Source of the DNA: Escherichia coli
GTDB lineage: Bacteria; Pseudomonadota; Gammaproteobacteria; Enterobacterales; Enterobacteriaceae
Assembly (NCBI RefSeq): GCF_030384885.1
Contig: NZ_CP128615.1
Length of the DNA: 64,000 bases
Direction: 5' to 3' (one strand)
The notes under the pieces were generated by a model, which searched no databases, was not told the DNA's origin, and saw only the letters and a list, made by a program, of their open reading frames with translations. Both the position numbers and the translations under genes were made by a program. How positions within the stretch are numbered: the first letter of the stretch is position 1; every line of letters begins with the position of its first letter. This document shows positions 1-31,630 of the stretch, piece by piece.

Positions 1-1149
1 TTTCCCTATGAATACTATTCCGTGCGGTTCAGCACCTTCTCCGGGGGGCATTTTGCCGGCTTCAGACGCTATCTGCGCCATCTGCTGTTAGACAGTGCAC
101 GCATCGATAACGAGCACGCCGCACAGGAATATACGCGCACAGTTTACAGCGTCAATGTGCCGGTAGCCGATCGGTACCGGCTTGAAAACAGTTACCGGCA
201 ACAGAAAATGCACTTCTGCACCCGGCATCTGTCAGCCATAAACGACACGCTGGATACGTATCAGTTTGGCGTGCGTTCCGGTGCTAAATCAGGTCTTGAG
301 GCGAATCTGGACATTACCGAGGACGGTATTTCCATTCGTCACCGTGGAAAAGGAAGGCAGTGCTTCATCAAAACAGAGTTTGCACTGCAGCGGCATCAGC
401 AGCAGGGAGAGCTCCACGCACTGTTGCTTGAGGAGCCGGAGAATCATCTCAGCCATGTCAGTATGAAGAGGCTGGTTAATCAGCTTGCAACTGAACGGCA
501 GACGCAGGTGTTTATTGCCACACACAGCAGCCATATCTCATCCCGCCTCGATCTGCGTAAGGCAATCCTCCTCGGGTCTGCCCGACCGGTACTGATGAAT
601 GAACTTTCCGCTGAGACTGCCGCCTTCTTCATGAAAGCACCGGACAATAATGTGCTGGAATTTGCGCTGGCCAGACGTGTGCTGCTCGTGGAGGGGGATG
701 CTGAGTTTATTCTGATCGAGGCCTTTTATCGCCGCCTGTATGGCAGGTCGCCGGAGGATGACGGGGTTCACATCATCGCTATCGGCGGAACGAGTTTCCG
801 TCGTTATCTTGAACTGGCCCGTCTTCTGGAAAATCGCGTCGCGGCCCTTCGTGATAATGACGGCAACTATCAGCAAAACTGCGATGAACGCTATGCTGAC
901 GTGCTTTGTTCCCGCTCCCGGGTATTTGCTGATCGCGATAACACCCGATCCACATTTGAAATCTGCCTGTATCAGGATAACGCTGGTCTGTGTGATGCGC
1001 TTTTCCGCGGAACACGCCGGACACTCACGGTGCAGGAATACATGCTGGCCAATAAGGCAGAAGCAGCATTCCGGCTGTTACAGCTGCACGCCGAAGAGCT
1101 GACAGTACCTGATTATATTCAGGAGGCACTGGCATGGATAAGAGAGTGA
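1..1149 (+). CDS. OLD-family ATP-dependent endonuclease (ABC-ATPase C-terminal part plus Toprim domain), 5'-partial at window edge; Gabija GajA-like
   Basis: Frame is open from base 1 (track ORF 22-1149). Translation has ATPase C-terminal motifs (LLLEEPENHLS, FIATHSSH) followed by Toprim signatures (LLVEGDAEFILIE, RDNDGNY). Stop overlaps the start of the next gene. Confidence 0.6.
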   Translation, partial: FPYEYYSVRFSTFSGGHFAGFRRYLRHLLLDSARIDNEHAAQEYTRTVYSVNVPVADRYRLENSYRQQKMHFCTRHLSAINDTLDTYQFGVRSGAKSGLEANLDITEDGISIRHRGKGRQCFIKTEFALQRHQQQGELHALLLEEPENHLSHVSMKRLVNQLATERQTQVFIATHSSHISSRLDLRKAILLGSARPVLMNELSAETAAFFMKAPDNNVLEFALARRVLLVEGDAEFILIEAFYRRLYGRSPEDDGVHIIAIGGTSFRRYLELARLLENRVAALRDNDGNYQQNCDERYADVLCSRSRVFADRDNTRSTFEICLYQDNAGLCDALFRGTRRTLTVQEYMLANKAEAAFRLLQLHAEELTVPDYIQEALAWIRE

Positions 1150-2156
1150 TATTTGCGGTTGCCGGCTCGGGCAAGACCACGCTGCTGATACAGCGGTTGA
1201 GTGAGGACCGGCGGACGCTGATCCTGACCTTCACCGTGAATAATGAAGCGCATCTCCGGGCGCAGATTATCAGACGTTTTGGCTTTATCCCGGACGGGAT
1301 CAGGGTGATGACCTGGTTTGAGTTTCTGCACGGTTTTTGCTTCAGGCCTTTCCTGCAGGAGCAGCTGGCATCGCGTGGGCTGAGCTTCGACCAGCCCCCA
1401 CCCAGAATACCGCGCACGAATGCCCGGCATTATCAGGATCCCGCCGGACGGCTGTATCACCGGAGGCTCGCACACTTACTCACAGCCCGGGGGCTGCTGC
1501 CAGATATCCGTACCCGGCTTGCCCGTTACTACGATGAACTGCTTGTCGATGAAGTCCAGGACTTTGCCGGACATGACTTTAATTTTCTGCTGGAGCTCTG
1601 CCGCGCGGAAATCACTGTGCTCTGTTGCGGCGATTTTTATCAACATACCTTTGATACAAGCCATGACGGCAACGTTAATTCAACGCTGCACGATGACATT
1701 ACGCGATATGAGGCCCGCTTCGACGCAGCAGGTTTCACGGTTGACCGGGACACGCTCAACCGGACATGGCGTTGCTCAGCTTCAGTGTGCGAGTTTATCA
1801 CCGGACAACTGAACATCCGTATCGCTGCCCATGGGATACATGCCACCCTGATTGAAACGATCACAGATGCAGAGCGCACAGCCACCCTGCACGCCGATAA
1901 TACGGTGATTAAGCTCTTCTATCGTGAACATCACCGTTACGGCTGCTATTCCATGAACTGGGGCGTCAGTAAAGGGCTCGACCACTTTCAGGATGTCTGC
2001 ATTGTGATGGGATCTTCCCACTGGAAGCTTCTGACCCGTCAGGAACTGGCAGCCCTTCCACCGTCGTCCCGTAACAGGCTGTACGTGGCATGCTCACGGG
2101 CGCGCGGCAACATTTATTTTGTTCCCGAAATTCATCTGCGCCGATTCCGGAACTGA
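1134..2156 (+). CDS. UvrD-like superfamily 1 helicase core protein (short, 340 aa), GajB-like partner of the OLD nuclease
   Basis: Walker A AVAGSGKTT, motif II LLVDEVQDF, GDFYQ, C-terminal LYVACSRARGNIYFV; start overlaps upstream OLD gene by 16 bp (operon). Confidence 0.55.
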   Translation: MDKRVIFAVAGSGKTTLLIQRLSEDRRTLILTFTVNNEAHLRAQIIRRFGFIPDGIRVMTWFEFLHGFCFRPFLQEQLASRGLSFDQPPPRIPRTNARHYQDPAGRLYHRRLAHLLTARGLLPDIRTRLARYYDELLVDEVQDFAGHDFNFLLELCRAEITVLCCGDFYQHTFDTSHDGNVNSTLHDDITRYEARFDAAGFTVDRDTLNRTWRCSASVCEFITGQLNIRIAAHGIHATLIETITDAERTATLHADNTVIKLFYREHHRYGCYSMNWGVSKGLDHFQDVCIVMGSSHWKLLTRQELAALPPSSRNRLYVACSRARGNIYFVPEIHLRRFRN

Positions 2157-2445
2157 GTCAGCTGCTTCTCAGTCGGGCACAATTCAGAAATAAAGCTGTA
2201 TGGCCAACGATGTCACTTCAGGCTGGAAAAGTGCGGATCCGGTTTTGCCTTTTTTCGGATCTGAGCGGGAAAAGTGAGAAACCAACATAGGTGTAACATA
2301 TCCATATGCCGGGCATCTGCATAGGCAAAGCATACGCATATACCTACCATCTGCATATGTAACACCTATACAAGCCGGGCTTGCAGGCATATACTTCACC
2401 TATGCGGGAATACTCCCTGGCACACTCAGCATATGAGGAAAAACC

Positions 2446-2676
2446 ATGCGCACAGTTTCGATATTTAAAAACGGCAATAACCGCGCCATCCGTCTGCCCC
2501 GGGACCTGGATTTTGATGGCGTCAGCGAGCTGGAGATCGTCCGGGAAGGGGACAGCATCATTCTGCGTCCCGTCCGGCCGACCTGGGGCTCGTTCGCGCA
2601 GCTGGACAGGGCCGATCCGGACTTTATGGCGGAGCGTGAGGATGTGGTCAGCGATGAAGGACGCTTTGAGCCATGA
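2446..2676 (+). CDS. vapB: VapB/VagC antitoxin (AbrB/SpoVT-type)
   Basis: 76-aa protein MRTVSIFKNGNNRAIRLPRDLDFDG...; 4-bp overlap with downstream PIN toxin gene; palindrome-rich promoter region upstream (2280-2445). Confidence 0.9.
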   Translation: MRTVSIFKNGNNRAIRLPRDLDFDGVSELEIVREGDSIILRPVRPTWGSFAQLDRADPDFMAEREDVVSDEGRFEP

Positions 2677-3089
2677 AGAAAACCTGGATGCTCGACACCA
2701 ACATCTGCTCGTTCATCATGCGCGAGCAGCCGGCAGCGGTGCTGAAGCGCCTGGAGCAGGCGGTGCTGCGCGGTGATCGCATTGTGGTCTCGGCCGTGAC
2801 GTATGCCGAGATGCGCTTCGGCGCCACCGGCCCGAAGGCCTCGCCGCGCCATATTCAGCTGGTCGACGCGTTCTGCGCGCGCCTCGATGCCGTCCTGCCC
2901 TGGGACCGCGCCGCGGTGGACGCCACGACGGACATCCGGGTGGCGCTGCGCCTAGCCGGGACGCCGATCGGCCCGAATGACACGGCCATTGCCGGGCACG
3001 CCATCGCGGCGGGCGCCATCCTGGTGACGAACAATGTGAGAGAGTTTGCGCGGGTCCCGGGCCTGGTGCTGGAAGACTGGGTGAAATAA
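2673..3089 (+). CDS. vapC: VapC/VagD PIN-domain toxin
   Basis: 138-aa PIN protein MKKTWMLDTNICSFIM... with conserved acidic residues; coupled to vapB. Confidence 0.9.
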   Translation: MKKTWMLDTNICSFIMREQPAAVLKRLEQAVLRGDRIVVSAVTYAEMRFGATGPKASPRHIQLVDAFCARLDAVLPWDRAAVDATTDIRVALRLAGTPIGPNDTAIAGHAIAAGAILVTNNVREFARVPGLVLEDWVK

Positions 3090-3130
3090 TCCCGTAATAA
3101 TTTCCGTGACGGAGACGACAGACATGAATG

Positions 3131-3192
3131 GGCTTTGTTGAATAAATCGAACTTTTGCTGAGTTGAAGGATCAGATCACGCATCCTCCCGAC
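3131..3192 (+). mobile_element. IS903 left-end fragment (62 bp)
   Basis: Identical to the first 62 bp of the intact IS903 copy at 23487 (GGCTTTGTTGAATAAATCGAACTTTTGCTGAG...); ends abruptly at the start of the IS3-family element. Confidence 0.8.
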
Positions 3193-3292
3193 TGGATTTG
3201 CCCCTATATTTCCAGACACCTGTTATCACTTAATGGAGTGACCCCGAGCCCGTAGACAAATCTGCCCTATAGTTTGAGCATAGGAGGAGTCT

Positions 3293-3577
3293 ATGGGCAC
3301 ATCACGTTTTACCCCTGAATTTAAGGAAGAGGCCGTCCGCCAGATCACCGAGCGGGGCTATTCTATTGCTGAAGTATCTGAACGGCTCGGCGTGTCGGCG
3401 CACAGCCTATATAAATGGCTCCGGGCTGTTAAGCCTGACAACAGTGGACAGCAGGCACAGGATTTACTGGATGCCAGAACAGAAATTCTCAGGCTGAAAG
3501 CACAGCTTAAACGCACTGAGGAAGAGCGGGATATTCTGAAAAAGGCAGCGCGGTACTTTGCAAGGGAGCCCGACTGA
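3293..3577 (+). CDS. IS3-family transposase OrfA (HTH)
   Basis: MGTSRFTPEFKEEAVRQITERGYSIAEVSERLGVS... typical IS3 OrfA with leucine-zipper-like C-terminus. Confidence 0.85.
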   Translation: MGTSRFTPEFKEEAVRQITERGYSIAEVSERLGVSAHSLYKWLRAVKPDNSGQQAQDLLDARTEILRLKAQLKRTEEERDILKKAARYFAREPD

Positions 3578-3624
3578 AGTATCGCTTTATCAACGATCAC
3601 CGTGAAATCTGGTCGATCGTTACA

Positions 3625-4212
3625 ATGTGTCGGGTCCTTAAGGTTGCCCGTGCCGGATTTTATGTCTGGCTCCATAACCCTGTATCTGCCGGAGAAAAGG
3701 ATAACCAGCGACTGCTGGAACTCATCCGCGACTCCTATACGCTGAGTGGTGGAGTTTACGGTTATCGCAGGGTTCATGGCGATCTTCGCGAAATTGGCGA
3801 AGTGTGCAGCAGAAACCGGGTTGCCAAAATCATGAGGAAAAACAGGATTCAGGCTATACATGGTTATAAAGTGCCACGCGGGAGCCGGGGACGACCGTCA
3901 CTGATAGCGCCTAATCACGTGCGGCGTGAATTTACTGTAGTGAAGCCCAATCAGGTGTGGGTCACCGACATCACCTACATCCGCACCTGGCAGGGCTGGC
4001 TGTACCTGGCAGTGGTTATCGATCTTTTTGCCCGTAATGTGGTGGGCTGGTCGATGAAGCCGACACTGTCGCGCGAGCTGGCACTGGATGCGCTGCTGAT
4101 GGCGGTCTGGCGACGTAAACCTGAAGAAAACGTCATTGTGCACAGCGATAGTAATAATGCCGATGTCAGTCTTTACCACCACTTAGTTTGCCGTTTAACC
4201 AGATTGGTGTGA
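3625..4212 (+). pseudogene. IS3-family transposase OrfB, 5' part, disrupted after the HSD motif by an IS110-family insertion
   Basis: Translation matches IS3 OrfB up to VIVHSD (about 4149) then runs into unrelated sequence and stops. Confidence 0.75.
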
Positions 4213-5525
4213 TTACTGATGCAGTGAAGACCTTCCCGCATCCTGACTCACACAGCGATCGACCTTTTGTGTCCTGCCCTGGACCCGTCGGTTGCCGGAA
4301 GCGCCTTCATGCGAGGCATCTCCTCACCGATGCGCGTGACTCAAGAAGGGCCTGACGGCTTGTCTCGTTACTGTCCTGTCCGGGTTATCTGTCTGGAGAT
4401 TCAACTCTGTTTCCTCACAGGAGCTCTGTCATGGTTGATAAAGTTACCGAAGCTGCCGTTGTGGGTGGCGTGGATACACATAAAGATTTGCACGTTGCCG
4501 CTGTCGTAGATCAGAACAATAAAGTCCTTGGGACTCAGTATTTCTCCACAACACGACAAGGTTACCGGCAGATGCTGGCATGGATGACCTCGTTTGGGAC
4601 ATTAAAGCGAATTGGTGTTGAGTGCACAGGTACCTATGGTTCCGGTTTGCTTCGTTATTTTCAGAACGCCGGGTTAGAAGTTCTTGAGGTGACTGCTCCA
4701 GACCGGATGGAGCGACGCAAACGGGGTAAAAGTGACACAATTGATGCTGAATGTGCCGCTCATGCAGCATTCTCAGGCATCAGGACAGTTACTCCCAAAA
4801 CGCGTGATGGCATGATTGAGTCCCTGCGGGTATTAAAAACTTGCCGAAAAACAGCAATATCAGCCCGCAGAGTCGCTCTCCAGATTATCCATTCAAATAT
4901 TATCTCTGCCCCGGATGAATTACGTGAACAGCTCAGAAATATGACGCGCATGCAGCTCATCAGGACCCTGGGTTCCTGGAGACCTGATGCCAGTGAATAC
5001 CGCAATGTAACCAACGTTTATCGCATTTCATTAAAGTCCCTTGCCCGACGCTATCTCGAGTTACATGACGAAATCGCTGATCTGGATGTCATGATTGCGG
5101 CAATTGTCGACGAGTTGGCACCTGAGCTGATTAAACGTAATGCTATCGGATACGAAAGCGCTTCACAGTTGCTGATCACTGCCGGAGACAATCCTCAACG
5201 GTTAAGATCAGAATCAGGATTTGCGGCACTGTGTGGTGTCAGCCCGGTCCCCGTTTCTTCTGGAAAAACGAACCGTTACCGACTTAATCGTGGTGGAGAT
5301 CGTGCTGCAAATAGTGCACTTCACATCATCGCCATCGGACGCTTACGAACTGACGCAAAAACAAAGGAATATGTCGCCAGGCGTGTAGCCGAAGGACATA
5401 CAAAAATGGAAGCGATACGCTGTCTAAAGCGATATATCTCCCGCGAAGTTTACACGTTACTGCGCAATCAAAACAGGCGGATCAACAGTATCCCGATAAC
5501 AGCTTGACTCTTAGAAGGGCGTCCA
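4150..5525 (+). mobile_element. IS110-family insertion sequence nested inside the IS3-family orfB
   Basis: About 1.38 kb insert between HSD and QGSQY codons of the IS3 orfB; encodes an IS110-type transposase; no obvious terminal inverted repeats, as usual for this family. Boundaries approximate. Confidence 0.6.
4431..5507 (+). CDS. IS110-family transposase
   Basis: 358 aa, N-terminus MVDKVTEAAVVGGVDTHKDLHVAAVVD... (DEDD-type RuvC-like fold family signature). Confidence 0.85.
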   Translation: MVDKVTEAAVVGGVDTHKDLHVAAVVDQNNKVLGTQYFSTTRQGYRQMLAWMTSFGTLKRIGVECTGTYGSGLLRYFQNAGLEVLEVTAPDRMERRKRGKSDTIDAECAAHAAFSGIRTVTPKTRDGMIESLRVLKTCRKTAISARRVALQIIHSNIISAPDELREQLRNMTRMQLIRTLGSWRPDASEYRNVTNVYRISLKSLARRYLELHDEIADLDVMIAAIVDELAPELIKRNAIGYESASQLLITAGDNPQRLRSESGFAALCGVSPVPVSSGKTNRYRLNRGGDRAANSALHIIAIGRLRTDAKTKEYVARRVAEGHTKMEAIRCLKRYISREVYTLLRNQNRRINSIPITA

Positions 5526-5589
5526 GGGCAGTCAGTATGGCAGTGATGACTGGCAGCGGTTCTGCCGGGCCAATAATCTGGTACCGAGC

Positions 5590-5802
5590 ATGAGCCGTCG
5601 CGGCAACTGCTGGGATAATGCAGTGGCAGAATCGTTCTTCAGTTCACTCAAAAAAGAGCGCATCAGGAAGCGGATATACAAAACCCGGGACATGGCCCGG
5701 GCGGATATTTTCGATTATATTGAAGTGTTCTACAACCGGGCCCGGCGCCACAGTCATCTCGGCGGCGTCAGCCCGGAGGCCTTCGAAAAGGCCTCGCAGT
5801 GA
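5590..5802 (+). pseudogene. IS3-family transposase OrfB, 3' part (frame open from about 5527: GSQY...SMSRRGNCWDNAVAESFF)
   Basis: C-terminal DDE-region motifs of IS3 transposases resume immediately after the IS110 insert. Confidence 0.75.
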
Positions 5803-5909
5803 GGACAGAAACTGTCTACCGGAGCGTGGTCACTCCACATTTAAAGAAACGAGCTTTGGTAAACATACCTGTAATGACTCCATAAAATGGCGCGTCAAAC
5901 GACACCTAA

Positions 5910-7985
5910 TCAATTAACCCCAAGCGCCTTAAACACGGCATCGACGGGGTCTGCATAAAAGCTGATCTGGAATTTTGAGAACAACTCAGCAGGAACCGTT
6001 GGAATATCTGAGGCTGAGGCCATTGGGAGCAAAATACGCTTTGCGCCACTGTCCATAGCTAACTGAAGACTGCCTGCAAGATCTTGAACAGGATTGACGA
6101 CACCACCTAAAGTCATCTCACCCAAAACAACCATCTGCTCTTGAATCGGTCGGTTCATCAGAATTGAACAGAACGCAATTAATGCAGCGAGCGATGACTT
6201 TGTACTTGGCCCCGTATTGTGGAGCTCAACAACATGGAGGTGATACTCATGATCAGAAAACTTCGCCGACGCACTGATTCTATTCAGGTTACCTTTGAAA
6301 TAATCAAAGCCAACACGCACAGCTTCTTTCGCTGCGGTATTCGAACCAAGGCCAGACACTGAGTGTTTACCAGAACCAGCCATCATCTGGGTTTCATAGC
6401 GATATAACCCAAGCTGCCCAGTGCTTCCCTGAGTAACCAAGTGCACGACACCAGCGCGAGGTAAGCCCTCAGGAATTAGCTTGCTGCCACCTTGTTCCGG
6501 TACATTGATGAAGAATTCTTCTAATGAATCGTTATCGATGTAGCTAAAGTGCACATCAAAAAATTCCATTCCGCCAAGCTTTTTCAATTGCTCTTTGACT
6601 CTACGTCTAGTTTCCAGCGCATAGGTCAGGCAGGCTCTTACATCATCTTTTGTGTACTGTGCGTCGGGGTGTAGTAGCTTTAACAAGCCCGAAACAGTTC
6701 TGCGTACAGCAATTACATCACGCTGATTAAGGTTATTACCGAGTTTGAAGAACTTATCGATAGCATCCGCAAAACTTCTTTTGCGCATTTCACGCATGTA
6801 TTCAGCAAGATAGTCTGTGATTAATCCGTAACTATTGGTGAAAAACTCAGGACGCATCTTCGGTATTTCCCATCCAGGAATATAGGAATGGAAACGGTCA
6901 AAAAAAGCAGTGTCAATCATGGCTTCAGGAAAAGGTGCCAACAGATGACTGGTCTTCACCAGTGTCTCAACGCTTTGATTGATGTTACCGACGAATACCA
7001 TGGAAGCCTTCGCTTCGATTGAATCACGACCACGGGCAAAAGACCCTGACGCCATATAATCTTTCATTATTTGGACGCCGTCTTTGTCTTTAAAGTTAAT
7101 ACCCGCTACTTCATCAAAGGCGACAACATCCCACATTCCGACCAACCCAACTTGGCGCGAGCTCATGTTATAGAACAAGTTCGCCACAGTTGTTTGTCCG
7201 CCCGAGACAAGCAATGAGTTTGGTGAGCACTCCTTGTAGACATGGCTTTTACCTGTCCCTCTTGGTCCGAGCTCACAAACGTTGTAGTTGTTTTCAACGA
7301 ATGGGATCATACGAGTGATAAGATGCCATTTCACCCGATGCTCTAAGTTGGTTGGCTCCATACCCACGGAACGAAGCAACACATCCATCCACTGATCGGT
7401 ACTAAAATGTCTTCTGGTTGAAAACACCTCATCCATGTTCATGGACGGCATTTGTATCGGTTTTAAACTCATAATGGAGAAAGGTGATGTCTTCTGACCT
7501 TCCTCAAAGAAATACTGGACGGTAATAATGCACCAGATGCCGCCAGTTAATAATTTTTCGTTGTCTTGTACTATTTTGGTCGGTACAAGGGCATCCTTGA
7601 TACCCAGGTTCGACAACGCAGCTTCATAGACGTCTTTTTTCTGGTTGAGCTTAACGCTTACTTTGTCGATGATTTTAAACGTGCCGCGTTCACGGATCAG
7701 TGACTTCACTTTCTCCGCTTCATCTGGTCGGACATAGTTCTCAGCCAAGATTTTTTTTACATTATCAAGGCCTTGCATTACAACTTCGTCGTCATCGGAC
7801 GCACAATACATGCCTAGTAAATACTCAAGCACATAGACAGGGACGTTAGCGCCTTCTTTCAATTGCTTTGTCAGATCTTTTCGAACGACACGGCCTTTAA
7901 AATATTGGTTGAGCAATGCGTCTAAATCGGCGCTTTGCATCTGATTTTTTTCGTCTTTATGATCTTGTGAAAAATCAGTTGTCAT
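5910..7985 (-). CDS. brxL: BREX protein BrxL (Lon-like protease domain protein)
   Basis: 691 aa; last gene of a brxA-brxB-brxC-pglX-pglZ-brxL syntenic block; Walker-like GPRGTGKSH and C-terminal Lon-protease-like region. Confidence 0.85.
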   Translation of the reverse strand: MTTDFSQDHKDEKNQMQSADLDALLNQYFKGRVVRKDLTKQLKEGANVPVYVLEYLLGMYCASDDDEVVMQGLDNVKKILAENYVRPDEAEKVKSLIRERGTFKIIDKVSVKLNQKKDVYEAALSNLGIKDALVPTKIVQDNEKLLTGGIWCIITVQYFFEEGQKTSPFSIMSLKPIQMPSMNMDEVFSTRRHFSTDQWMDVLLRSVGMEPTNLEHRVKWHLITRMIPFVENNYNVCELGPRGTGKSHVYKECSPNSLLVSGGQTTVANLFYNMSSRQVGLVGMWDVVAFDEVAGINFKDKDGVQIMKDYMASGSFARGRDSIEAKASMVFVGNINQSVETLVKTSHLLAPFPEAMIDTAFFDRFHSYIPGWEIPKMRPEFFTNSYGLITDYLAEYMREMRKRSFADAIDKFFKLGNNLNQRDVIAVRRTVSGLLKLLHPDAQYTKDDVRACLTYALETRRRVKEQLKKLGGMEFFDVHFSYIDNDSLEEFFINVPEQGGSKLIPEGLPRAGVVHLVTQGSTGQLGLYRYETQMMAGSGKHSVSGLGSNTAAKEAVRVGFDYFKGNLNRISASAKFSDHEYHLHVVELHNTGPSTKSSLAALIAFCSILMNRPIQEQMVVLGEMTLGGVVNPVQDLAGSLQLAMDSGAKRILLPMASASDIPTVPAELFSKFQISFYADPVDAVFKALGVN

Positions 7986-8001
7986 GTTTCACCTCAGCGC
8001 C

Positions 8002-10674
8002 TTAGAAAAAATCATCTTGGAATGCCAAATCAATGGTTACCGCGTATTGGCTATAACGGGTTCTCATTTCCGCATTCTCAAGAACTAATGTGTATTGAGC
8101 GTTTCTATCGAACTGGGAGCCAATAAGCTTTAACCTAGCTTCGCGAGTACGTTCATCCATCACTTTACTCACGCTATCAAAGTTAATCGTTTCACGACTG
8201 GAGACTTCATTACCTTGTGCATCGACGATATAGACATCCAACAACCGTGCGACGAAACGCTCGCCTACAGGGTCTGTCTGAATAAATCTGACCTTGTCGA
8301 TATTGTTTACTAATTTGATGGGCTGAGTGGCTGCTACAACACCTACCGGTTGTTTCTCATGTTTTGCTGCTTGTTCTTTTTGTAGCTCTCGCACATGTAG
8401 TACCGGTACGCAGACTTCCTGTAGCATCGCTCCGCCATGCACAAACTTAGCACCACCAACGAAGTGGAAGCGTTGAGCCGCTTTTGGAAGCAGGAACTCG
8501 GTATCACTTGAGCCATGAGCCGTATCGTTAATTGAGCCTTTCCAACAGGCTTCATCTGAAGGCAAGTTATTACCAACGATATAACGTTTCTTGGCTTCTA
8601 TCGCTCCAGCAGGTTTGGTTTTCAACGAGGTTTTGTCAGCCGCTACAAGTGCTTTTTGTTGGAAGAGGAAGCCATGGTCAGCAGTGATCACAACTCGGCT
8701 GCCGTTTAGACGGTTGATGACCCGCCCAACGAGGTCTTTTAGCTCTTCAATGGCACTACGACAGGCTTCAAACGTTTTCTCTTCAGTTGCTGCCTTATCA
8801 CCAATCGCATCAATGGTATCGTGATAGATATAAACGACTTCTACGTCTCGAACCTTGTCACGCCCCTCCTGGTTACTCCAGCTCATCAGTTCCTTAGAAC
8901 TCACTGCCATACCACCTACTTTTTGTAGGATGGCGTTGCGGTTGTCTAGACCCTGTGAAGAAATACCATCCACATAAACAGCCGTGCCTTGCTCTGGCTG
9001 GTAACTGAGCGCCTTATGAGGCAATAATGCCGCCATCCCAAGTTGGGTATAACTCGGCAAAACGCCCAACTGCGTAGACACCTCAGCCTTAAATCGCTTC
9101 TCGTTGTTAATGATAGCGCCAAGCTCATTCGCAATTTCAAAACGCAGGGCATCAGAGATGATCACAAACACTCGTTTTGTCTGTTTCAGACTCAGTCGTG
9201 TGCGAACTTCTTTTTCATAGAAGTCATACTGGTGCGGTACGCCAGAAATCTGCCACTTTTCAAGTAATTTTTCATTGGCCAAGTGACGATCCCATGCAAG
9301 GCCAAGCTCATACAAGTACCAGTTGGTATAAATGCTTTCGACTTCGTCGTCGAGCTGACGCAGTATGTCTGCACCTTTACTCAATACAGAGTGCACATGC
9401 TCATTGAACAAACGGTAAGCCTGGTCAAAACGATAAATGTCTGTGGTATAGGCGTCGTACATTGCTTTCGCGTTATCAAAGTGGAACCCATCCACATAGC
9501 GATTTCGCAAGTGCATTAACTCTTCAGCGTTGCGGATAGCTTCATAAATTGCGAAGTATTCTTTGCGTGACAATGTCCAGTGGCTAGAAAGACGTCTTGA
9601 TAAGACCGTATCAAACTGAACCCGGTCTAGCGCTTTACTGCTATCGAGCAAATCACGAACTAAACCACGGATTATGGCCTGTTCCACAGCTTCGAACGTT
9701 TCGCATTCGATAAGCTCAACCGGATGGTACTGCCCAGCACGAGTCGAAATTTCCAACTGTTGGCTAAGCACCTTAGAGATGCTTTCGTAGTAAGCGGCGA
9801 AAGAGCGGCTGTCGCGCCAGCTCACCATAAACGCCAAGGCTGTCGCCCGGCCTGATGCGCTTTTTAGAACATTGTTAAGCAACCAATCGCGTTCAACACC
9901 TTCAATTTGGCTCCAGAATTCAGTACAGAATAATTTCAACACGAAGTCTGAGAAGGTTGGCTCTTCAACTGTATAGCCAAAACCCTCACTCAGATATGCC
10001 CAGAGTGAGGTCTCAAGATCAAACTTTCCTAGCTGGCTCCATAAAGGTTGACCAAGGCTTTCATCTTCGATATAAGCCGCATATTCGCGTAGTAACCCAA
10101 GCAGAATGTCCGACAAAGACGCAGAATCAGCTTTTACAACCACTGCCATCATCTTTCTGTCTAACGACAGTTCGTCTTCGTTCTCAGTCACCCACTTTTT
10201 TAAACCGGCTATGCGCTGTTTATTGGCAAAAAAGCTCTGGCGCTTACGAATGTGCGTGCGAAGCGCCATTTTCGGAATACCCAGCTCATTAAGCAGCATT
10301 GAGCTGTGATCAGCAAAAAACTGCTCGCTATACAAACGCACGTCTAGCAACCAATCGCGGTCAGGCTCTGGCTCAGCGCTTGGAAAATAGATAAGGAATT
10401 TAGCTTCACGCTCATCTACTTCAATGCGTTTTTTCACTGCCAATACAGACTCATTGCCCATATTGAGGATGGTCAAATCATTTGGAAGCACCCGTGCAGT
10501 TTTATCCGCCGATTTATCGTCTGTTTCTTTTGCAAGCCCTTCTTTTGCAATAGAGAGGGCGTTAGCTAAATGCTCAAGCTCTTCAGTAAAGCTTTGCTCT
10601 GGGTCGTACCAAAACACAATGCGGCTTTGTTCAAATTTGGCAGCAACGCCTTGTGCCAGTTCACTAATCTGCAT
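8002..10674 (-). CDS. pglZ: BREX protein PglZ (alkaline-phosphatase superfamily)
   Basis: 890 aa; position between pglX and brxL; size and composition match PglZ. Confidence 0.85.
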   Translation of the reverse strand: MQISELAQGVAAKFEQSRIVFWYDPEQSFTEELEHLANALSIAKEGLAKETDDKSADKTARVLPNDLTILNMGNESVLAVKKRIEVDEREAKFLIYFPSAEPEPDRDWLLDVRLYSEQFFADHSSMLLNELGIPKMALRTHIRKRQSFFANKQRIAGLKKWVTENEDELSLDRKMMAVVVKADSASLSDILLGLLREYAAYIEDESLGQPLWSQLGKFDLETSLWAYLSEGFGYTVEEPTFSDFVLKLFCTEFWSQIEGVERDWLLNNVLKSASGRATALAFMVSWRDSRSFAAYYESISKVLSQQLEISTRAGQYHPVELIECETFEAVEQAIIRGLVRDLLDSSKALDRVQFDTVLSRRLSSHWTLSRKEYFAIYEAIRNAEELMHLRNRYVDGFHFDNAKAMYDAYTTDIYRFDQAYRLFNEHVHSVLSKGADILRQLDDEVESIYTNWYLYELGLAWDRHLANEKLLEKWQISGVPHQYDFYEKEVRTRLSLKQTKRVFVIISDALRFEIANELGAIINNEKRFKAEVSTQLGVLPSYTQLGMAALLPHKALSYQPEQGTAVYVDGISSQGLDNRNAILQKVGGMAVSSKELMSWSNQEGRDKVRDVEVVYIYHDTIDAIGDKAATEEKTFEACRSAIEELKDLVGRVINRLNGSRVVITADHGFLFQQKALVAADKTSLKTKPAGAIEAKKRYIVGNNLPSDEACWKGSINDTAHGSSDTEFLLPKAAQRFHFVGGAKFVHGGAMLQEVCVPVLHVRELQKEQAAKHEKQPVGVVAATQPIKLVNNIDKVRFIQTDPVGERFVARLLDVYIVDAQGNEVSSRETINFDSVSKVMDERTREARLKLIGSQFDRNAQYTLVLENAEMRTRYSQYAVTIDLAFQDDFF

Positions 10675-13600
10675 TAGTTAACCTCCGGGGCCGAACCGGT
10701 AATGGCCTTAACATCAGCCAACAGATCACCAAACTTGCCGTAATTCACTTTCACGCCATCATCCAAATCCAGTGAAATACGCATATCAGCGTAGTGTTTT
10801 AGCTTGTCATCAAACTCGCGTAGTTCAACCTGTTTCTTGATTAAGGCATCCAACTCTTTCTTGAAGCGGTTCGCTTCACTGGTCGAGTCTGCCGTTTCAA
10901 TCTGCTTCTCAAGCTGCTCTGCATAAGCATCGTATTTGCCGAGTAACGGGGTGACATACTCGGTACGCATACGCGAAAGCGTGCCCTCGTTGTAACGGTG
11001 CAGGTAAACCAGGCACTCAAAAGCCTTCTGTTTGCCTGAGCTAAACAACCAATAAATAGGACGTTTTTTGTATGTCTTCAGGTGGTCTTTGTAGAATTGA
11101 GTCGATAAATAGCGGCGGATCGTCTCAAGAGCTGATTCTGATTTTTTGGGCTTTATGGCATTTAAGCACAGAGACTCTGCAACAAAATCGAGATTTTCTT
11201 GTAAGTGTTCTTCACCCCAAACAACTTGGACAAACTCGCGGAAACGATTGGTTGCGTCGTCCTTGAACCATTCTTGGTCGGTTAGGGGAATGATGCCATT
11301 TTCGTCGGCAGCAAAAGATTGATAAGCACCTTCGGCAACGAGTTTATCAAACCCATAATTACAAGCATGAGCGTAGACTAAGCCTTCACGATCAAGAGAG
11401 TAACGCCCCATCATGCAACCAATGGAGTAACTAATGAGTTCACAGGTTGTATCAGATTTTAACTTACTTAAATCAGTAGAATTTTCATATCGAAAAGCAG
11501 GGTTAGCAAATAATGATAGTGTTGAAATATCTATTGAAACCGGCACCGAAATTCCAAAATCATTGCATATTAAAGAATTAACTTCACTTTCCAAATTGGC
11601 TTGTTCATTAACTAGATTTAACTTCACTTCATTTAGAACCTGATAAGATTCAGCAATTTTGGCACGTTTTATTTTACACAGAGGCGAACATTCAAAGTTC
11701 CATGACGTTTCGTACATATCCCAATCAACCTTTGCGTTGGAAATTAAATCGCTCACCTTTTCAAACAATGCTTCTTTGTCAGCCTTATTGAAAATTGCCG
11801 GCAATGAGGCTATTTGACTCGTTTCATAGTTAAGCGTTGGCGAAATGATTTTTAACTGTTCCAGCACTACAGATGAGTTTAACTGAGCCAATAAGGCATA
11901 TTCTTCAATTCGAGAATTAAGAAATACTGATGCACCTGCAACGTCAAATATCGCTCCTTCAGGCTGCCATCTGAACGATGGAATTCCACTCGAAATTTTT
12001 GACCAAGTTACTGAGCTACGAAAATAAAATGCACCATTTTTCACAGTTCTAGTAGGAGACCCATACAAACTTTTAGCGTATGCAAATACCTCTTCACCTG
12101 CATTTTCCCAATTAATTACGTATTCCTGATTGCCATACCATTTTCTATATGAACCGCCTTTATTATATGGAAACCATTTGAATCCTGAGGATTCAGCTTC
12201 ATCTTTAGAACTAGAGTCATACATTGAGGTGTTTACTGGAACTTCATGCCATAGCCTTAAGAATCTATTATTATCACTTGTTTGACACCCAACTCTAGTT
12301 TTAGCAACTGACGATATTGGCGCGTCCATAAATGTATTTAATATTTCCTTGGCAACCCAATAAGCAATCGGACTCCCAGGAATCTTTTTGAAATCATCCT
12401 GAGCTGTCGCTGCAAATTCATTCTCTCTATTGAGCAATGCTTTTTGCTTTTCTTCTTCATTGCCATCTATCAGCCTATAAAAGGTAGGTTGATAATGATT
12501 GATGTGCTTATTTTGAATAATCCAGGCAGTAGTCTGTACAACCTCGCCACTAATCTGACTAAAAGCGCGTGCACCGAGGTGAGCCATAGTAATAAATGTA
12601 TGGTCTTCCAATAAATTGTTTCTTAGTTGCTCATAACTCGACAAGAACATCCACGATTGCATATTGATTTGAGCATTAAATCCATATTGAGAAAGCAATT
12701 TAAATGCTCGCTCCATAAAAATGGCAAACAAGTCTGATTTACTATTTGGGTATTGTTTCTTAGCAAACTCTTTCAAATCTGCATTCATTCCTTTTGCTCC
12801 CATATAGGGAGGATTAGCAATCACAGCATCGTAACGAATAGATAAAACCAAAGCCTGGTGAACAAACTCAATCAATTGCTTCGCTGCCAGCTTCTGCATT
12901 GAGTCGCCTGACTCTTGTAGCTCTACTAGCGTGCTCAGGAGCTCTTTTAGCTGTTCATGGTCATCGCTTGGTACATCAATCAATGAACCAAAGGTCTTGG
13001 CTTGAGTAAATCTTGCCAACGTTCGCTTCAGCAGTTGGTAGCGGTTGTCTGCATTGAACGAGCTTAAATCTTGCTCTTCGTCAGAGAACAGTCCTTGTGA
13101 TGTGCCGCTTTGCCAACTTCCCGATAGGTTGAGTGCTTTCCATAAGGTCGGCAGATCAATATGGTTACTTTCCTGCAATGACAGTACATTGAGTCGCACG
13201 TTACGGGTAAAAATACGCTTGTCGTCATCTCTCGCCATCATCATCAGGGCAAAGCCAGATAGCTGTGCTGCACGATCATCTATGTCCAAGCCGAAGAGGT
13301 TGTTCTCCAGGATCATCTTTGGAATGTCACGAGAGCGGAAACCACGTTCTTCGTAGATGGCTTTTAGTACGTTGTAAGCTTCAATCAGTATGTGGCCCGA
13401 GCCACAAGCGGGATCGAGTACTTTGATGGTTTCAGGTTCAATCGATTCTGGCGTAATAGCCTTTAGCTGTTGGTTAACTTCGTCAGATTGCTGCGCAGGC
13501 TCAATGTAGTATTCCATCTGGCTTTTAATGGCAGAGTCTGGGTAGGTTTGCAGCCATTGACGACCGACTGAGTTTTGTACCAGGTACTTTACAATCCAGT

Positions 13601-14342
13601 TAGGTGTAAATAGCTGAGTAGCGGCAGGAATGTCTTCACTTTTGACTACTTTTCCGATGACCTGATCTTTCTTTTCAGAAATGTAGAATTGGTAAAGCCA
13701 ACCAATCACTTCGACTTGTTGCCAGTCCTCTTCAGGGATGCCGTCTACCAATCCACGCAGAATGGAGTCGGTACGCATTAGGTTGTCTGGTAGCAGAAGC
13801 TCTGTTTCATCGTCCAATGCGTCAAATAAGAAAGGCATCGCTTCATGTAGCTTATGGCACTGGCCTAACAGCAGTTCACGATACAGCTCTTCGTCTTTGT
13901 TGCCCGCAAGCTTGAGTTCAACAATGCGAGCTCTATCTAATCCGAGTTCATCCGCAGCGTCTTGGGCATGGTCGATAATTTCAAAGCCTTTAGGGTTGTC
14001 TGGGTGCGACAAAACACGAAAACCGTGGCCTAGATAGTCATGGATTTCCATATAGCGAATAGCACACAGACGGTTGAACCAGGTATAAGCTACTTGTTCA
14101 ATAAGTTGTGCATACCCAAGTTTCTGGCTTCTGGCTACTATGCGTTTTCTGGGCTCGGCCAGTTTACCGTCAAAACTGTTACCAGCGATTTGAAGCACAG
14201 AACCTTGTAGATTCGCTTCTGCAATTTGTAGCTCGCCCTTTTTATTCGCGGTGATACCAAAGGTATTTAATCGTTTAGCTACCGCATCCATAAATTCGCG
14301 GCGCGCTTTTGGTGCGTATTTTTTAATGTTGTTCGTATTCAT
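10674..14342 (-). CDS. pglX: BREX N6-adenine DNA methyltransferase PglX
   Basis: 1222 aa; contains the amino-methyltransferase motif IV NPPY (VIANPPYMGAKGMN) and an AdoMet-binding-like LDPACGSGHIL motif. Confidence 0.9.
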   Translation of the reverse strand: MNTNNIKKYAPKARREFMDAVAKRLNTFGITANKKGELQIAEANLQGSVLQIAGNSFDGKLAEPRKRIVARSQKLGYAQLIEQVAYTWFNRLCAIRYMEIHDYLGHGFRVLSHPDNPKGFEIIDHAQDAADELGLDRARIVELKLAGNKDEELYRELLLGQCHKLHEAMPFLFDALDDETELLLPDNLMRTDSILRGLVDGIPEEDWQQVEVIGWLYQFYISEKKDQVIGKVVKSEDIPAATQLFTPNWIVKYLVQNSVGRQWLQTYPDSAIKSQMEYYIEPAQQSDEVNQQLKAITPESIEPETIKVLDPACGSGHILIEAYNVLKAIYEERGFRSRDIPKMILENNLFGLDIDDRAAQLSGFALMMMARDDDKRIFTRNVRLNVLSLQESNHIDLPTLWKALNLSGSWQSGTSQGLFSDEEQDLSSFNADNRYQLLKRTLARFTQAKTFGSLIDVPSDDHEQLKELLSTLVELQESGDSMQKLAAKQLIEFVHQALVLSIRYDAVIANPPYMGAKGMNADLKEFAKKQYPNSKSDLFAIFMERAFKLLSQYGFNAQINMQSWMFLSSYEQLRNNLLEDHTFITMAHLGARAFSQISGEVVQTTAWIIQNKHINHYQPTFYRLIDGNEEEKQKALLNRENEFAATAQDDFKKIPGSPIAYWVAKEILNTFMDAPISSVAKTRVGCQTSDNNRFLRLWHEVPVNTSMYDSSSKDEAESSGFKWFPYNKGGSYRKWYGNQEYVINWENAGEEVFAYAKSLYGSPTRTVKNGAFYFRSSVTWSKISSGIPSFRWQPEGAIFDVAGASVFLNSRIEEYALLAQLNSSVVLEQLKIISPTLNYETSQIASLPAIFNKADKEALFEKVSDLISNAKVDWDMYETSWNFECSPLCKIKRAKIAESYQVLNEVKLNLVNEQANLESEVNSLICNDFGISVPVSIDISTLSLFANPAFRYENSTDLSKLKSDTTCELISYSIGCMMGRYSLDREGLVYAHACNYGFDKLVAEGAYQSFAADENGIIPLTDQEWFKDDATNRFREFVQVVWGEEHLQENLDFVAESLCLNAIKPKKSESALETIRRYLSTQFYKDHLKTYKKRPIYWLFSSGKQKAFECLVYLHRYNEGTLSRMRTEYVTPLLGKYDAYAEQLEKQIETADSTSEANRFKKELDALIKKQVELREFDDKLKHYADMRISLDLDDGVKVNYGKFGDLLADVKAITGSAPEVN

Positions 14343-14357
14343 ATGATCTTGCGCCTC

Positions 14358-16121: not shown

Positions 16122-16137
16122 AGTTATCCGTTGCCTC

Positions 16138-21023: not shown

Positions 21024-21950
21024 TCACGATTCGCTATATCCAGGAGCGAGTGCAGCATTGTCAACGCCGTATAGTGCTTCTGGATTTTTAAGTGCTAAAT
21101 GGAACTCTCGCCCATTGCTCTTACAATTCTTTGAACAATCGATATTCCATAAACGCAGTAAATATCCAGCGAACGCAGCTCTTATCTCTACACGCAACCT
21201 ATTGTTTTCCATTGCGTAGTCCATCGATACAGCTTCTGGATGTGCTAGTTTTGGATGAGGTATCAGCTCTAGCTCAACGATTCGGTTCCATTGCTTATCC
21301 CACTGAAGAGTCTCAACTTCGTCGTTAACCTCATCCTCTAACAACTCAACTTCACTTATTCTGGTTAAAACAAAATCCCTAAATTCTCTAAGCTTTCTAT
21401 CGAATGCTCGGACATGCCATCTCAAGCCATTGTCAATCAGGGTATGAGGAACTATTTGCCTGCTCCCATGACCACTCGACAATGAGGTGTACTCAATATT
21501 AATCACAGCGCGCTTATGTATGGCTTCACTAATAGCCGCTACAACTTCCAATTTCGGCTTATTGAGATGGAATGGTGCTTCACAAGCCATAGGTGGCCTG
21601 GCCTTGCCAAGAAAGCCATCACCGAACCCTTGGCTTATCGTCGCAAGAGTTCGAACAACGTCATAATCAAACAACGGCTGGAATGCGCTCGTCTTCAAGT
21701 GCACTCTGCGCTTTTCGTCATACATAACGTTGTTAGGAGCCAACTCTTTGTACCGCGCAAAATCTTGTGTTGCCACAGACGGCGCTACGCTAAATCGCTC
21801 GGTTAAATAACTACGCCCAGCTTCACCTTTAAATAACAAAGTGAAATCAATATGAGCGAGTCGTTCTCTCTGTGCTTGGCTAAGCTCTTCAAGTCCAGTG
21901 TTGTCTTGCACTGTCAGCCTCTCAATCCATCTGGGACAAGCCCTAATCAT
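21024..21950 (-). CDS. brxR: WYL-domain transcriptional regulator BrxR (wHTH-WYL)
   Basis: 308 aa; N-terminal winged-HTH-like segment and WYL-like core (QIVPHTLIDNGLRWHVRAFD); directly upstream of brxA. True start may be an internal Met. Confidence 0.7.
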   Translation of the reverse strand: MIRACPRWIERLTVQDNTGLEELSQAQRERLAHIDFTLLFKGEAGRSYLTERFSVAPSVATQDFARYKELAPNNVMYDEKRRVHLKTSAFQPLFDYDVVRTLATISQGFGDGFLGKARPPMACEAPFHLNKPKLEVVAAISEAIHKRAVINIEYTSLSSGHGSRQIVPHTLIDNGLRWHVRAFDRKLREFRDFVLTRISEVELLEDEVNDEVETLQWDKQWNRIVELELIPHPKLAHPEAVSMDYAMENNRLRVEIRAAFAGYLLRLWNIDCSKNCKSNGREFHLALKNPEALYGVDNAALAPGYSES

Positions 21951-24543: not shown

Positions 24544-24625
24544 AGATGGAATAGCCCCGCTCGGTGATTTGGCGGACAGCTTCTTCCTTAAATTCAGGGG
24601 TAAAACGTGGTGTGCCCATAGACTA
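24544..24625 (-). mobile_element. 82-bp remnant of an IS3-family element (orfA start region)
   Basis: Minus strand encodes MGTPRFTPEFKEEAVRQITERGYSI, near-identical to the orfA start at 3293; cut on both sides by IS903 and the IS407-like element. Confidence 0.5.
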
Positions 24626-26342: not shown

Positions 26343-26373
26343 CCCGCATGGCATAGGCCTATCGTTTCCACGA

Positions 26374-27573: not shown

Positions 27574-27619
27574 GTCTGGCCTCCGGACCAGCCTCCGCTG
27601 GTCCGATTGAACGCGCGGA

Positions 27620-27672: not shown

Positions 27673-27678
27673 TCAAGC

Positions 27679-31627: not shown

Positions 31628-31630
31628 GTG

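Follow-up and report, generated by a model that had tools for sequence, protein, structure and literature searches.

The first 2156 nucleotides of the window (the whole stretch of Escherichia coli DNA analysed here, 64,000 nucleotides of contig NZ_CP128615.1) very probably carry a complete two-gene Gabija defence system, gajAB, which belongs to a compact subtype, is located on a resistance plasmid and has its 5' end outside the window. The original prediction, made from the DNA letters alone, had proposed a Gabija-like (class 2 OLD) pair, and this identification holds, since the PADLOC GajA and GajB models match the two proteins end to end. Judged from these sequence relationships, the function of the pair is likely to be Gabija-type DNA-targeting defence.

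The layout of the locus is given in Table 1. As originally predicted, the 5' end of the first gene lies outside the window: gajA is read in frame 1 without interruption from base 1 up to its TGA stop codon and runs off the 5' edge, with the first 138 codons, Walker A among them, beyond the window start. An ORF check found no in-frame start for gajB before the ATG at 1134. The two genes overlap by 16 nt, and an AGGAGG sequence is placed 7 nt ahead of the gajB ATG. The DNA of this part of the window is 100% identical to that of the E. coli plasmid p5735-2. Comparison with a 90%-identical IncF variant gives dN/dS values of 0.09 for gajA and 0.12 for gajB (overall range 0.09-0.19), and both genes are thus real, not chance, reading frames under purifying selection. 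Minus-strand ORFs within the same interval are all of 130 residues or fewer and were taken as shadows of the plus-strand genes. We treat the neighbouring vapBC toxin-antitoxin genes as context and make no claim that they belong to the system.

Table 1. Features of the gajAB locus and its neighbourhood, in window coordinates
Feature	Position	Strand	Description
gajA, 3' part	1-1149	+	Final 382 codons with stop codon; the full OLD-family / GajA-type gene has 520 codons
ABC ATPase Walker B / D-loop, LLLEEPE	421-441	+	Residues 279-285 of the full protein; read from sequence
ABC ATPase H-loop, ATHSSH	517-534	+	Residues 311-316
Toprim nuclease core	670-861	+	Residues 362-425; Pfam PF20469 OLD-like_TOPRIM, 1e-16
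Toprim EGD, catalytic E369	691-699	+	Motif read from sequence
Toprim DND, catalytic D423/D425	853-861	+	Motif read from sequence
Translational-coupling junction	1121-1149	+	AGGAGG 1121-1126, gajB ATG 1134, gajA stop 1147-1149
gajB, complete	1134-2156	+	340-aa compact SF1A helicase; predicted 1A, 1B-like insert and 2A, without 2B
Helicase motif I (Walker A), AVAGSGKTT	1155-1181	+	Residues 8-16; A10, G11, G13, K14 and T15 invariant in 89 sequences
1B-like accessory insert	1314-1535	+	Approximately residues 61-134; predicted to follow the third strand of the core and precede that of motif II
Helicase motif II, DEVQD (DEXQD box)	1548-1562	+	Residues 139-143; D139 and E140 invariant (n = 89)
Helicase motif III, GDFYQ	1629-1643	+	Residues 166-170; G166, D167 and Q170 invariant (n = 89)
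Motif IV (R213) to motif V (K280 G281)	1770-1976	+	About 65 residues; expected site of 2B, which the model and profile alignment lack
Helicase motif VI, YVACSR	2082-2099	+	Residues 317-322; Y317 and R322 invariant (n = 89)
vapB 2446-2676, vapC 2673-3089	2446-3089	+	Neighbouring toxin-antitoxin pair; VapB/VapC annotated in matching plasmids

The 382 GajA residues encoded in the window (139-520) match the C-terminus of the 520-residue protein WP_063073409.1 of p5735-2 at 100% identity, and this homologue was used for the full-length tests. We infer the N-terminal ATPase half of GajA from p5735-2, which is identical across the 2156 bases in the window. The original prediction depended on an N-terminal Walker A ATPase appearing once the gene was completed, and the p5735-2 gene supplies one, GDNESGKST, with its lysine at K37. 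The predicted combination of an ABC ATPase with an OLD-family Toprim domain was likewise recovered, the Walker B, H-loop, EGD and DND motifs all being present. Pfam places AAA_15 at residues 4-52 and 226-317 and OLD-like_TOPRIM at residues 362-425, fusing ATPase and Toprim in one polypeptide. The closest solved relative is Bacillus cereus GajA (5e-10), in which LIEEPE and STHSPE align with the LLLEEPE and ATHSSH motifs of the present protein.

The PADLOC GajA model PDLC00102 matches the partial window protein at 9.8e-77 and the full-length homologue at 1.5e-101, covering residues 4-517 of 520. The next-best PADLOC model from outside Gabija, that of phage P2 Old, gives a far weaker match (8e-19); P2 Old is a class 1 member of the same ATPase-Toprim family and stands alone, with no helicase partner. 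No NCBIfam model reached its cut-off for GajA or GajB. Matches to PARIS, Septu/PtuA, retron Eco8 and MADS ATPases were rejected because they are confined to the Walker A region. The AriA model of PARIS covers residues 4-52 only; AriA and AriB are moreover separate ATPase and Toprim/DUF4435 proteins without a helicase, whereas here the two domains are fused and a helicase is the partner. Septu or retron Ec78 PtuA was similarly set aside, the NCBIfam PtuA match scoring 36 bits where the cut-off is 500, over residues 4-49 only, with no HNH partner.

The features by which Gabija is recognized are present, in that a UvrD-like SF1 helicase gene lies adjacent on the same strand and both proteins match PADLOC Gabija HMMs. 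The catalytic residues are also in place: K37, E369 and D423/D425 in GajA, and K14 and D139/E140 in GajB, the latter invariant in 89 relatives. In class 2 OLD systems the ATPase-Toprim protein is encoded in tandem with a UvrD/PcrA/Rep-like helicase, whereas class 1 genes stand alone, and the present OLD gene has just such a tandem helicase gene. OLD nucleases were reportedly classified by Schiltz et al. in 2019, with the Burkholderia pseudomallei and Xanthomonas OLD proteins in class 2; to our knowledge, the structural studies of these two did not address a compact partner helicase.

All of the SF1 motifs originally noted in GajB (I, II, III and VI) were found, together with Ia, IV and V. Across 89 family members, T34 of motif Ia, R213 of motif IV and K280 and G281 of motif V are invariant, Q142 and D143 of motif II are at least 90% conserved, and the start codon and N-terminus are conserved. 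The DEVQD box aligns with DEYQD of PcrA. The PADLOC GajB model PDLC00148 matches residues 1-330 of 340 at 1.7e-47, and the PADLOC HMMs for compact GajB relatives have 365-369 positions; Pfam helicase matches are weak, at E 0.005 or worse. An AlphaFold2 model built with the 89-sequence alignment has a closed fold with a pLDDT of 97.3, and shows the helicase core expected from the original prediction; with the single sequence, AlphaFold2 gave a pLDDT of 36. The two RecA-like core domains with motifs I, Ia, II, III, IV, V and VI identify the protein as SF1A, nearest both in fold and in profile to Rep, PcrA and UvrD. These housekeeping helicases (E. coli Rep and UvrD, B. stearothermophilus PcrA) are 620-720 residues long with full 1B and 2B domains and carry an N-terminal adenine-recognition segment, whereas GajB begins only 7 residues ahead of motif I. 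An engineered form of Rep from which 2B is missing also ranks among the closest known proteins.

The original prediction that the helicase lacks accessory domains was half right. The model and the profile alignment indicate that 2B is absent and that a 1B-like insert is retained, with helices at 61-78, 109-118 and 122-132. Residues between motifs IV and V leave little space for 2B, positions 229-278 of the compact family profile standing opposite PcrA residues 303-562. The domain boundaries derive from secondary structure and profile alignment rather than residue-level superposition. At 74 residues, the insert is a reduced version relative to SF1A accessory domains and is similar in size to the 83-residue Nacc/1B domain of B. 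cereus GajB (PMC10681800).

Comparison with the B. cereus VD045 prototype (GajA 578 aa, GajB 494 aa; PDB 8sm3, 8j4t, 8jqb, 8iud) brings out both likeness and difference. Both systems consist of two co-oriented genes. Their GajA proteins each join an ABC ATPase to a Toprim domain and share the Walker B, H-loop and acidic Toprim residues, and in each GajB a DEXQD box and a 1B-like insert accompany the SF1A core. GajA here is 58 residues and GajB about 150 residues shorter than the B. cereus proteins; B. cereus GajB has a 103-residue Cacc/2B domain that our GajB is predicted to lack, and the 2A domain here is shorter. Sequence similarity between the two helicases is at noise level (E 0.7), and at E <= 0.01 the compact family profile matched PcrA, Rep and UvrD, and not B. 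cereus GajB. The four-subdomain GajB (1A, 1B, 2A, 2B) is a feature of the prototype and not a formal criterion for Gabija. The setting also differs, being here an enterobacterial plasmid with vapBC alongside. A defence-associated UvrD-like helicase that naturally lacks 2B is DarH of DarHTG (PMC13069673); its partners are the DarT/DarG toxin-antitoxin pair rather than an OLD nuclease, and it resembles GajB in the absence of 2B. ApsAB was considered as a Gabija-like anti-plasmid relative and rejected, being an SF2 helicase-nuclease with an Argonaute-like protein (PMC11096173).

Whilst the helicase was rightly described as compact relative to B. cereus GajB, it is not unusual for its own family. 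Full-length relatives form 602 clusters at E < 1e-10 from several phyla, nearly all of 323-385 residues, so GajB is not a truncation and its size is ordinary. The pairing with an OLD nuclease is conserved. In each of five distant compact helicases (27-35% identity) with a readable upstream gene, a compact OLD-Toprim gene lies directly upstream and overlaps the helicase gene by 8-19 nt; three of these upstream genes are complete (530-549 aa) and one is ended by a contig edge. In a sixth case the upstream gene is cut to 61 residues and gave no domain match. In a phage collection we found only two distant matches (28% identity), both in Listeria records. Against this background, the idea that gajB has decayed to a truncated gene in a locus that is now an inactive remnant has scarcely any probability. 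It draws on the length deficit relative to B. cereus GajB and on the weak Pfam matches, yet the relatives are of similar size, the catalytic motifs are all invariant, the N-terminus is conserved, the model is confident and closed, and gajB is under selective constraint (dN/dS as above). Computation refutes it as far as computation can.

It is also very improbable that gajAB is a DNA repair or recombination accessory, acting on host or plasmid DNA damage rather than in immunity. The kinship of GajB with the repair and replication helicases Rep, PcrA and UvrD would fit such a role, as would umuC, which the window also carries. The end-to-end matches, however, are to defence-specific HMMs, the pair is part of a mosaic accessory region where BREX and toxin-antitoxin genes are its neighbours, and an OLD nuclease with a helicase is the defining architecture of Gabija, whose prototype acts in phage defence (PMC10781630).

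Among 5426 complete E. coli genomes, 761 (~14%) carry the gajAB pair, with 772 of its 781 E. coli occurrences on plasmids; it is also found in 2838 PLSDB plasmids. On p5735-2 and two other related plasmids (3/3 inspected), vapBC lies 74-75 nt upstream of gajAB on the same strand. Simple consensus scans of the p5735-2 gap found no terminator-like site and no promoter-like match, a result that does not show co-transcription. The pCTXM15_005008 copy lies beside a RepFIB replicon, sopAB and ccdAB. This strongly plasmid-borne distribution, together with the vapBC and replicon linkage, speaks for a rival reading in which the plasmid and not the host benefits from the pair. It would then act against competing plasmids or other mobile elements, or form part of a vapBC-gajAB maintenance module, and phage defence would take second place or be lacking. 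Two published points agree with this: in P. aeruginosa, Gabija targets the unprotected ends of linear DNA and not features specific to phage, and Wu et al. suggest that such plasmid systems help the plasmid to repel competing mobile elements (bioRxiv 10.1101/2022.08.21.504612). We nevertheless consider this reading unlikely. Phage defence is still compatible with these observations through the same biochemical mechanism, the distant compact family members inspected show no vapBC link, and the scans of the p5735-2 gap look for matches to simple consensus sequences.

The system had in fact been encountered before. The originally suggested minimal variant is not new, because the exact GajA and GajB proteins occur on hundreds of public contigs and plasmid Gabija beside VapBC has already been described. 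Gabija is annotated here by standard defence tools, and Wu et al. reported that PADLOC-called Gabija on conjugative plasmids of E. coli is accompanied by tmn and by type II toxin-antitoxin systems such as VapBC, with CP083423.1 as reference plasmid (bioRxiv 10.1101/2022.08.21.504612). This picture suits the window pair as well as its 90%-identical IncF relatives, and the Wu et al. plasmid Gabija is presumably the same compact pair. Two gajAB neighbours in related plasmids, a Sll1717-family P-loop ATPase and a protein with DUF4238, had no PADLOC match, and the tmn link is therefore unconfirmed for these loci. The experiments of Wu et al. used the longer ECOR49 Gabija and not the plasmid systems they catalogued. 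Primer sequence and mutant numbering led us to reject ECOR49 Gabija as the present system: the ECOR49 GajA begins with MRIETVYIKGL and carries K35, H317 and E379, and the ECOR49 GajB carries K27/T28 and D183/E184. Our literature search found no published experiment on the compact Gabija subtype, and searches by accession number and keyword found no description of a compact or 2B-less GajB.

Reading gajAB as Gabija, we can propose how it would work. GajA is a class 2 OLD nuclease in which an ABC-type nucleotide-binding domain is joined to a DNA-cleaving Toprim domain, and GajB is a translationally coupled SF1A (UvrD/Rep/PcrA-like) ATPase/helicase. In the prototype both proteins are needed and form a 4:4 complex with contacts through the GajB 1B domain (PMC10781630); by analogy with this and the P. 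aeruginosa system, GajA and GajB would form a complex here too. Nucleotide bound to GajA would restrain the Toprim nuclease until linear or replicating phage DNA, sensed as DNA ends or as dropping NTP pools, frees it to nick or cleave DNA, and the GajB ATPase would then act on the resulting ends. In the model, the compact GajB keeps the 1B-like insert, the part that contacts GajA in B. cereus, with the 2B regulatory domain wholly missing. Because 2B rotates in the B. cereus complex and is absent here, the details of regulation may differ from B. cereus Gabija.

More speculatively, and with a chance that we rate as low, the lack of 2B may make this widespread plasmid subtype work unlike the prototype. 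GajB might be an unregulated motor that truly unwinds DNA, which is conceivable given that helicase activity has not been observed with B. cereus GajB; the complex might have another stoichiometry and so escape phage inhibitors such as Gad1; or the pair might act with the upstream vapBC as a four-gene unit whose main targets are linear DNA or plasmids entering the cell, and not phage.

The gajAB system is real but ordinary, and it was already known. Among defence cargoes it is one of the commonest on clinical resistance plasmids of the IncF type and of Klebsiella, and its presence in ~14% of complete E. coli genomes and ~2800 PLSDB plasmids means that its activity bears on phage therapy and plasmid competition. 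All mechanistic studies of Gabija to date have relied on GajB proteins longer than this one, the four-subdomain prototype from B. cereus among them, so a natural GajB predicted to lack 2B would be a useful comparison for the role of that domain in the complex. Neither its abundance nor this comparison would surprise a specialist, and its importance is modest; its one point of interest is how Gabija works without a 2B domain.

In plus-strand frame 1 no stop codon occurs from base 1 until the TGA at 1147-1149 (gajA, the OLD/GajA-type gene). A second plus-strand ORF (gajB) starts with an ATG at 1134, ends at 2156 and specifies a protein of 340 aa; it overlaps gajA by 16 nt, and the two are therefore translationally coupled. 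The sequence AGGAGG at 1121-1126 lies 7 nt 5' of the gajB ATG, inspection of the reading frame revealed no earlier in-frame start, and every minus-strand ORF within 1-2156 is 130 aa or shorter. Across window 1-2156 the E. coli plasmid p5735-2 (NZ_CP154889.1) has 100% DNA identity. Its first gene has 520 codons (WP_063073409.1, annotated 'ATP-dependent nuclease') and its second encodes 340 aa (WP_089606841.1, annotated 'DNA helicase UvrD'); both the 382 GajA residues in the window and the window's 340-aa protein agree with these products at every position. The 138 residues that the window gajA misses contain, in p5735-2, the Walker A sequence GDNESGKST (K37). Judged from that copy, with the window's own upstream DNA unseen, the completed GajA would have the N-terminal Walker A on which the original prediction of an OLD nuclease depended, and the prediction therefore stands.

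Both proteins are recognized by the PADLOC models for Gabija, in agreement with the Gabija-like identity first proposed. GajA residues 4-517 align with positions 3-531 of the 532 in PDLC00102 (1.5e-101), and GajB residues 1-330 match PDLC00148 (1.7e-47), a model of only 369 positions; a second short model, PDLC00140 (365 positions), also matches GajB (1.9e-42). The PADLOC model for P2 Old reaches only 8e-19 against GajA, and the nearest solved protein by sequence is the GajA of the Gabija prototype from B. cereus (5e-10). A reading of GajA as PARIS AriA was rejected, the match to the AriA model being confined to the Walker A region. In the full-length protein, Pfam places an ABC/SMC-type ATPase (AAA_15) in two parts, residues 4-52 and 226-317, and C-terminal to it OLD-like_TOPRIM (residues 362-425, E 1e-16). 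The predicted C-terminal ABC-ATPase motifs and Toprim EGD and DND motifs were all located in the window sequence (see table). A role for the pair in DNA repair is very improbable, being opposed both by these defence-specific HMM matches and by the defence-island context.

GajB is seen weakly by Pfam (UvrD-helicase 0.005, Viral_helicase1 0.007), and no NCBIfam model matched it above cut-off. Of 1.84 billion cluster representatives, 952 are related to it at E <= 1e-3, and 602 of these still at E <= 1e-10. When 89 relatives are aligned, the columns without variation coincide with the SF1 motifs, including the predicted motifs I, II, III and VI. The helicase had been called unusually compact; it is indeed only 340 aa, but this size is not unusual, as the apparently full-length relatives among the best 150 are nearly all of 323-385 aa.

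Features of the window (nucleotide positions unless residues are indicated)
Feature	Position	Strand	Remark
GajA Walker B	421-441	+	LLLEEPE
GajA H-loop	517-534	+	ATHSSH
GajA Toprim Glu	691-699	+	EGD
GajA Toprim DxD	853-861	+	DND
GajB motif I	residues A10, G11, G13, K14, T15		invariant in 89
GajB motif Ia	residue T34		invariant in 89
GajB motif II	residues D139, E140, Q142, D143		D139, E140 invariant in 89; Q142, D143 nearly so
GajB motif III	residues G166, D167, Q170		invariant in 89
GajB motif IV	residue R213		invariant in 89
GajB motif V	residues K280, G281		invariant in 89
GajB motif VI	residues Y317, R322		invariant in 89
IS3-family element (ISEc15-like)	3293-5802		split
IS3 orfA	3293-3577
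IS3 orfB, N-terminal part	3625-4212
IS110-family transposase	4431-5507		inserted in IS3
IS3 orfB, C-terminal part	5590-5802
Type 1 BREX system	5910-19815	-
BrxL	5910-7985	-
PglZ	8002-10674	-
PglX	10674-14342	-
Extra 587-aa gene between pglX and brxC	14358-16121	-	PADLOC HEC-05 candidate family, 6e-234
BrxC	16138-19815	-
308-aa ORF just past BREX genes	21024-21950	-
Resistance/transposon region	23519-38382
IS5-family transposase	23519-24487
Carboxylate/amino acid/amine (drug/metabolite exporter) transporter	25458-26342
tet(A)	26374-27648
Tn3-family transposase, first	28661-31627
PAS-domain methyl-accepting chemotaxis-like protein	32500-34077
Tn3-family transposase, second	35497-38382
umuC	49784-51055
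ParA-type partition ATPase	52111-53316
RepE-like replication initiator	54177-55043

AlphaFold2 gave a pLDDT of 36 for GajB from the single sequence, and of 97.3 (pTM 0.92) with the 89-sequence alignment. A profile of the compact family aligns with PcrA, an SF1A helicase with 1B and 2B domains, in two blocks (3e-18): profile 5-229 with PcrA 28-303, spanning motifs I through IV, and profile 278-335 with PcrA 562-620, containing motifs V and VI. Thus about 260 residues of PcrA, the whole of 2B included, are replaced by about 50. Core strand 3 (56-60) is separated from the motif II strand (135-139) by a 74-residue insert, in which the model has helices at 61-78, 109-118 and 122-132. In B. cereus GajB the Nacc/1B subdomain is of similar length, with 83 residues (73-155); the 103-residue Cacc/2B (314-416) of that protein has no counterpart in the window helicase (PMC10681800). 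With domain boundaries taken from secondary structure and profile alignment rather than residue-level superposition, the claim that both accessory domains are lacking therefore holds for 2B and fails for 1B, of which a similar insert is kept. Its retention is notable because the GajA-GajB and GajB-GajB contacts of the B. cereus complex both lie in 1B (PMC10781630). By analogy, the insert is likely to be the GajA docking surface of the compact subtype. Rotation of 2B regulates Rep and UvrD; with this regulating element gone, we speculate that the compact motor is possibly less regulated. DarH, of the defence system DarHTG, is a UvrD-like helicase naturally without 2B (PMC13069673), and Rep minus 2B retains helicase activity, in work cited there. 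We found no open-access or bioRxiv paper in which a compact or 2B-less GajB is described or tested.

Six distant compact homologues (27-35% identity, from unrelated metagenomes) were inspected for their neighbors. In five, the helicase lies directly 3' of an OLD-Toprim or OLD-like gene, with an overlap of 8-19 nt; of the five upstream genes, three are full-length (530-549 aa), a fourth is shortened to 253 aa by the contig end, and the fifth, shortened to 163 aa, was counted without domain look-up. The upstream gene of the sixth is cut to 61 aa by the contig end and has no domain match. Compact helicases of 334-385 aa that resemble the GajB model (TM 0.84-0.98) are present in AFDB50, from Pseudomonas, Vibrio, Acinetobacter, Prevotella, Streptococcus, Bacillus, Listeria, lactobacilli, Bifidobacterium, Treponema and Brachyspira. 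The conserved pairing and this spread therefore indicate a coherent, widespread compact Gabija subtype and not a local truncation. Comparison with a 90%-identical IncF variant gives dN/dS values of 0.087 (gajA) and 0.122 (gajB). That the pair is an inactive remnant is scarcely credible, given the sequence conservation and the family-wide helicase size. Two unannotated 23.8-kb 'Listeria phage' records, OR846759.1 (6101-7180) and OR848108.1 (16634-17713), each carry a gene for a compact helicase resembling GajB, which aligns over 98% of the query at 28% identity; they are the sole GajB matches in 50,697 phage records.

The 2156-base pair sequence is matched in 761 of 5426 complete E. coli genomes, with 772 of the 781 matching places on plasmids. 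In PLSDB, 2838 plasmids match window 1-2400 (Klebsiella 1701, Escherichia 763, Enterobacter 161, and others), and the exact proteins are encoded by 286 and 190 public contigs, where their names are generic. In an earlier PADLOC survey of E. coli genomes, Gabija was among the plasmid-carried systems, co-localizing with tmn and type II toxin-antitoxins such as VapBC in the 'leading region', where it may help its plasmid to withstand rival mobile elements (Wu et al., bioRxiv 10.1101/2022.08.21.504612). All three related plasmids inspected have a vapBC pair 74-75 nt 5' of gajAB on the same strand. Scans of this gap in p5735-2 gave no terminator-like site and no promoter-like match, so co-transcription with vapBC is possible. 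The pair might instead serve the plasmid, acting with vapBC in its competition or maintenance; such a role would fit the same biochemistry as defence, and we hold it to be unlikely.

A second vapBC lies 3' of gajAB at 2446-3089, and in this plasmid lineage gajAB can sit between two different vapBC pairs (related-plasmid locus L001, 4870-5513); in p5735-2 an IS21-family element has cut the downstream vapC short. The window has a mosaic junction at about 2236-2246 (within 2157-2460). Left of it the window is identical to p5735-2-type plasmids; right of it, plasmids such as pPK8568-156kb match at 99.5-100% identity, and these have vapBC, IS elements and BREX but lack gajAB upstream. Coverage of window 1-9000 stays below 80% in every PLSDB record, and recombination appears to have occurred in the shared region upstream of vapB. 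Nested imperfect inverted and direct repeats occupy 2286-2405, upstream of vapB; they include 40-nt arms with 75% complementarity (2287-2326 and 2330-2369) as well as repeated CATCTGCATA and CATAT units. Other vapB copies have part of this pattern upstream of them, so the repeats may be VapBC operator sites. In related plasmids, two genes lying upstream of vapBC-gajAB drew no PADLOC match: one for a 557-aa 'P-loop ATPase, Sll1717 family' (locus L002, 1196-2869, minus strand) and one for a 349-aa DUF4238 protein (L001, 3509-4558, minus strand). They might serve defence or plasmid maintenance without having been catalogued as such.

Beyond the second vapBC lies an IS3-family element into which an IS110-family element has inserted, followed by type 1 BREX on the minus strand. 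The IS3 element is uninterrupted in the related plasmids NC_004998.1 and NC_024960.1. The HEC-05 gene looks like an accessory defence gene embedded in BREX, and NCBIfam gave no match for the 308-aa ORF at E <= 1e-10. Across 26-32 kb the GC content climbs to 0.62-0.66. Given tet(A), the Tn3-family transposases, umuC and the ParA/RepE-like replicon, the window is part of a resistance plasmid.

To the established two-gene architecture, conserved catalytic residues of both enzymes, fold, purifying selection and conserved synteny, the prototype adds a probable course of action. GajA and GajB would assemble into a complex in which the Toprim nuclease is restrained by nucleotide bound to the ATPase domain of GajA; infection would free the nuclease to cut DNA, and the GajB ATPase would work on the ends so made. 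Alternatively the complex might attack linear DNA ends, as proposed for P. aeruginosa Gabija, whose targets would be ends without RecBCD protection (PMC12407980). The Gabija studied experimentally by Wu et al. (10.1101/2022.08.21.504612) is that of ECOR49, which is not the window system: the primer-encoded GajA N-terminus (MRIETVYIKGL) and the numbering of the mutants (GajA K35, H317, E379, D495 and K528; GajB K27/T28 and D183/E184) show a different, longer system. The window pair is an already catalogued and very common plasmid Gabija system. Its sole unusual feature is a GajB without 2B, which is typical of a large subfamily modelled by standard tools.
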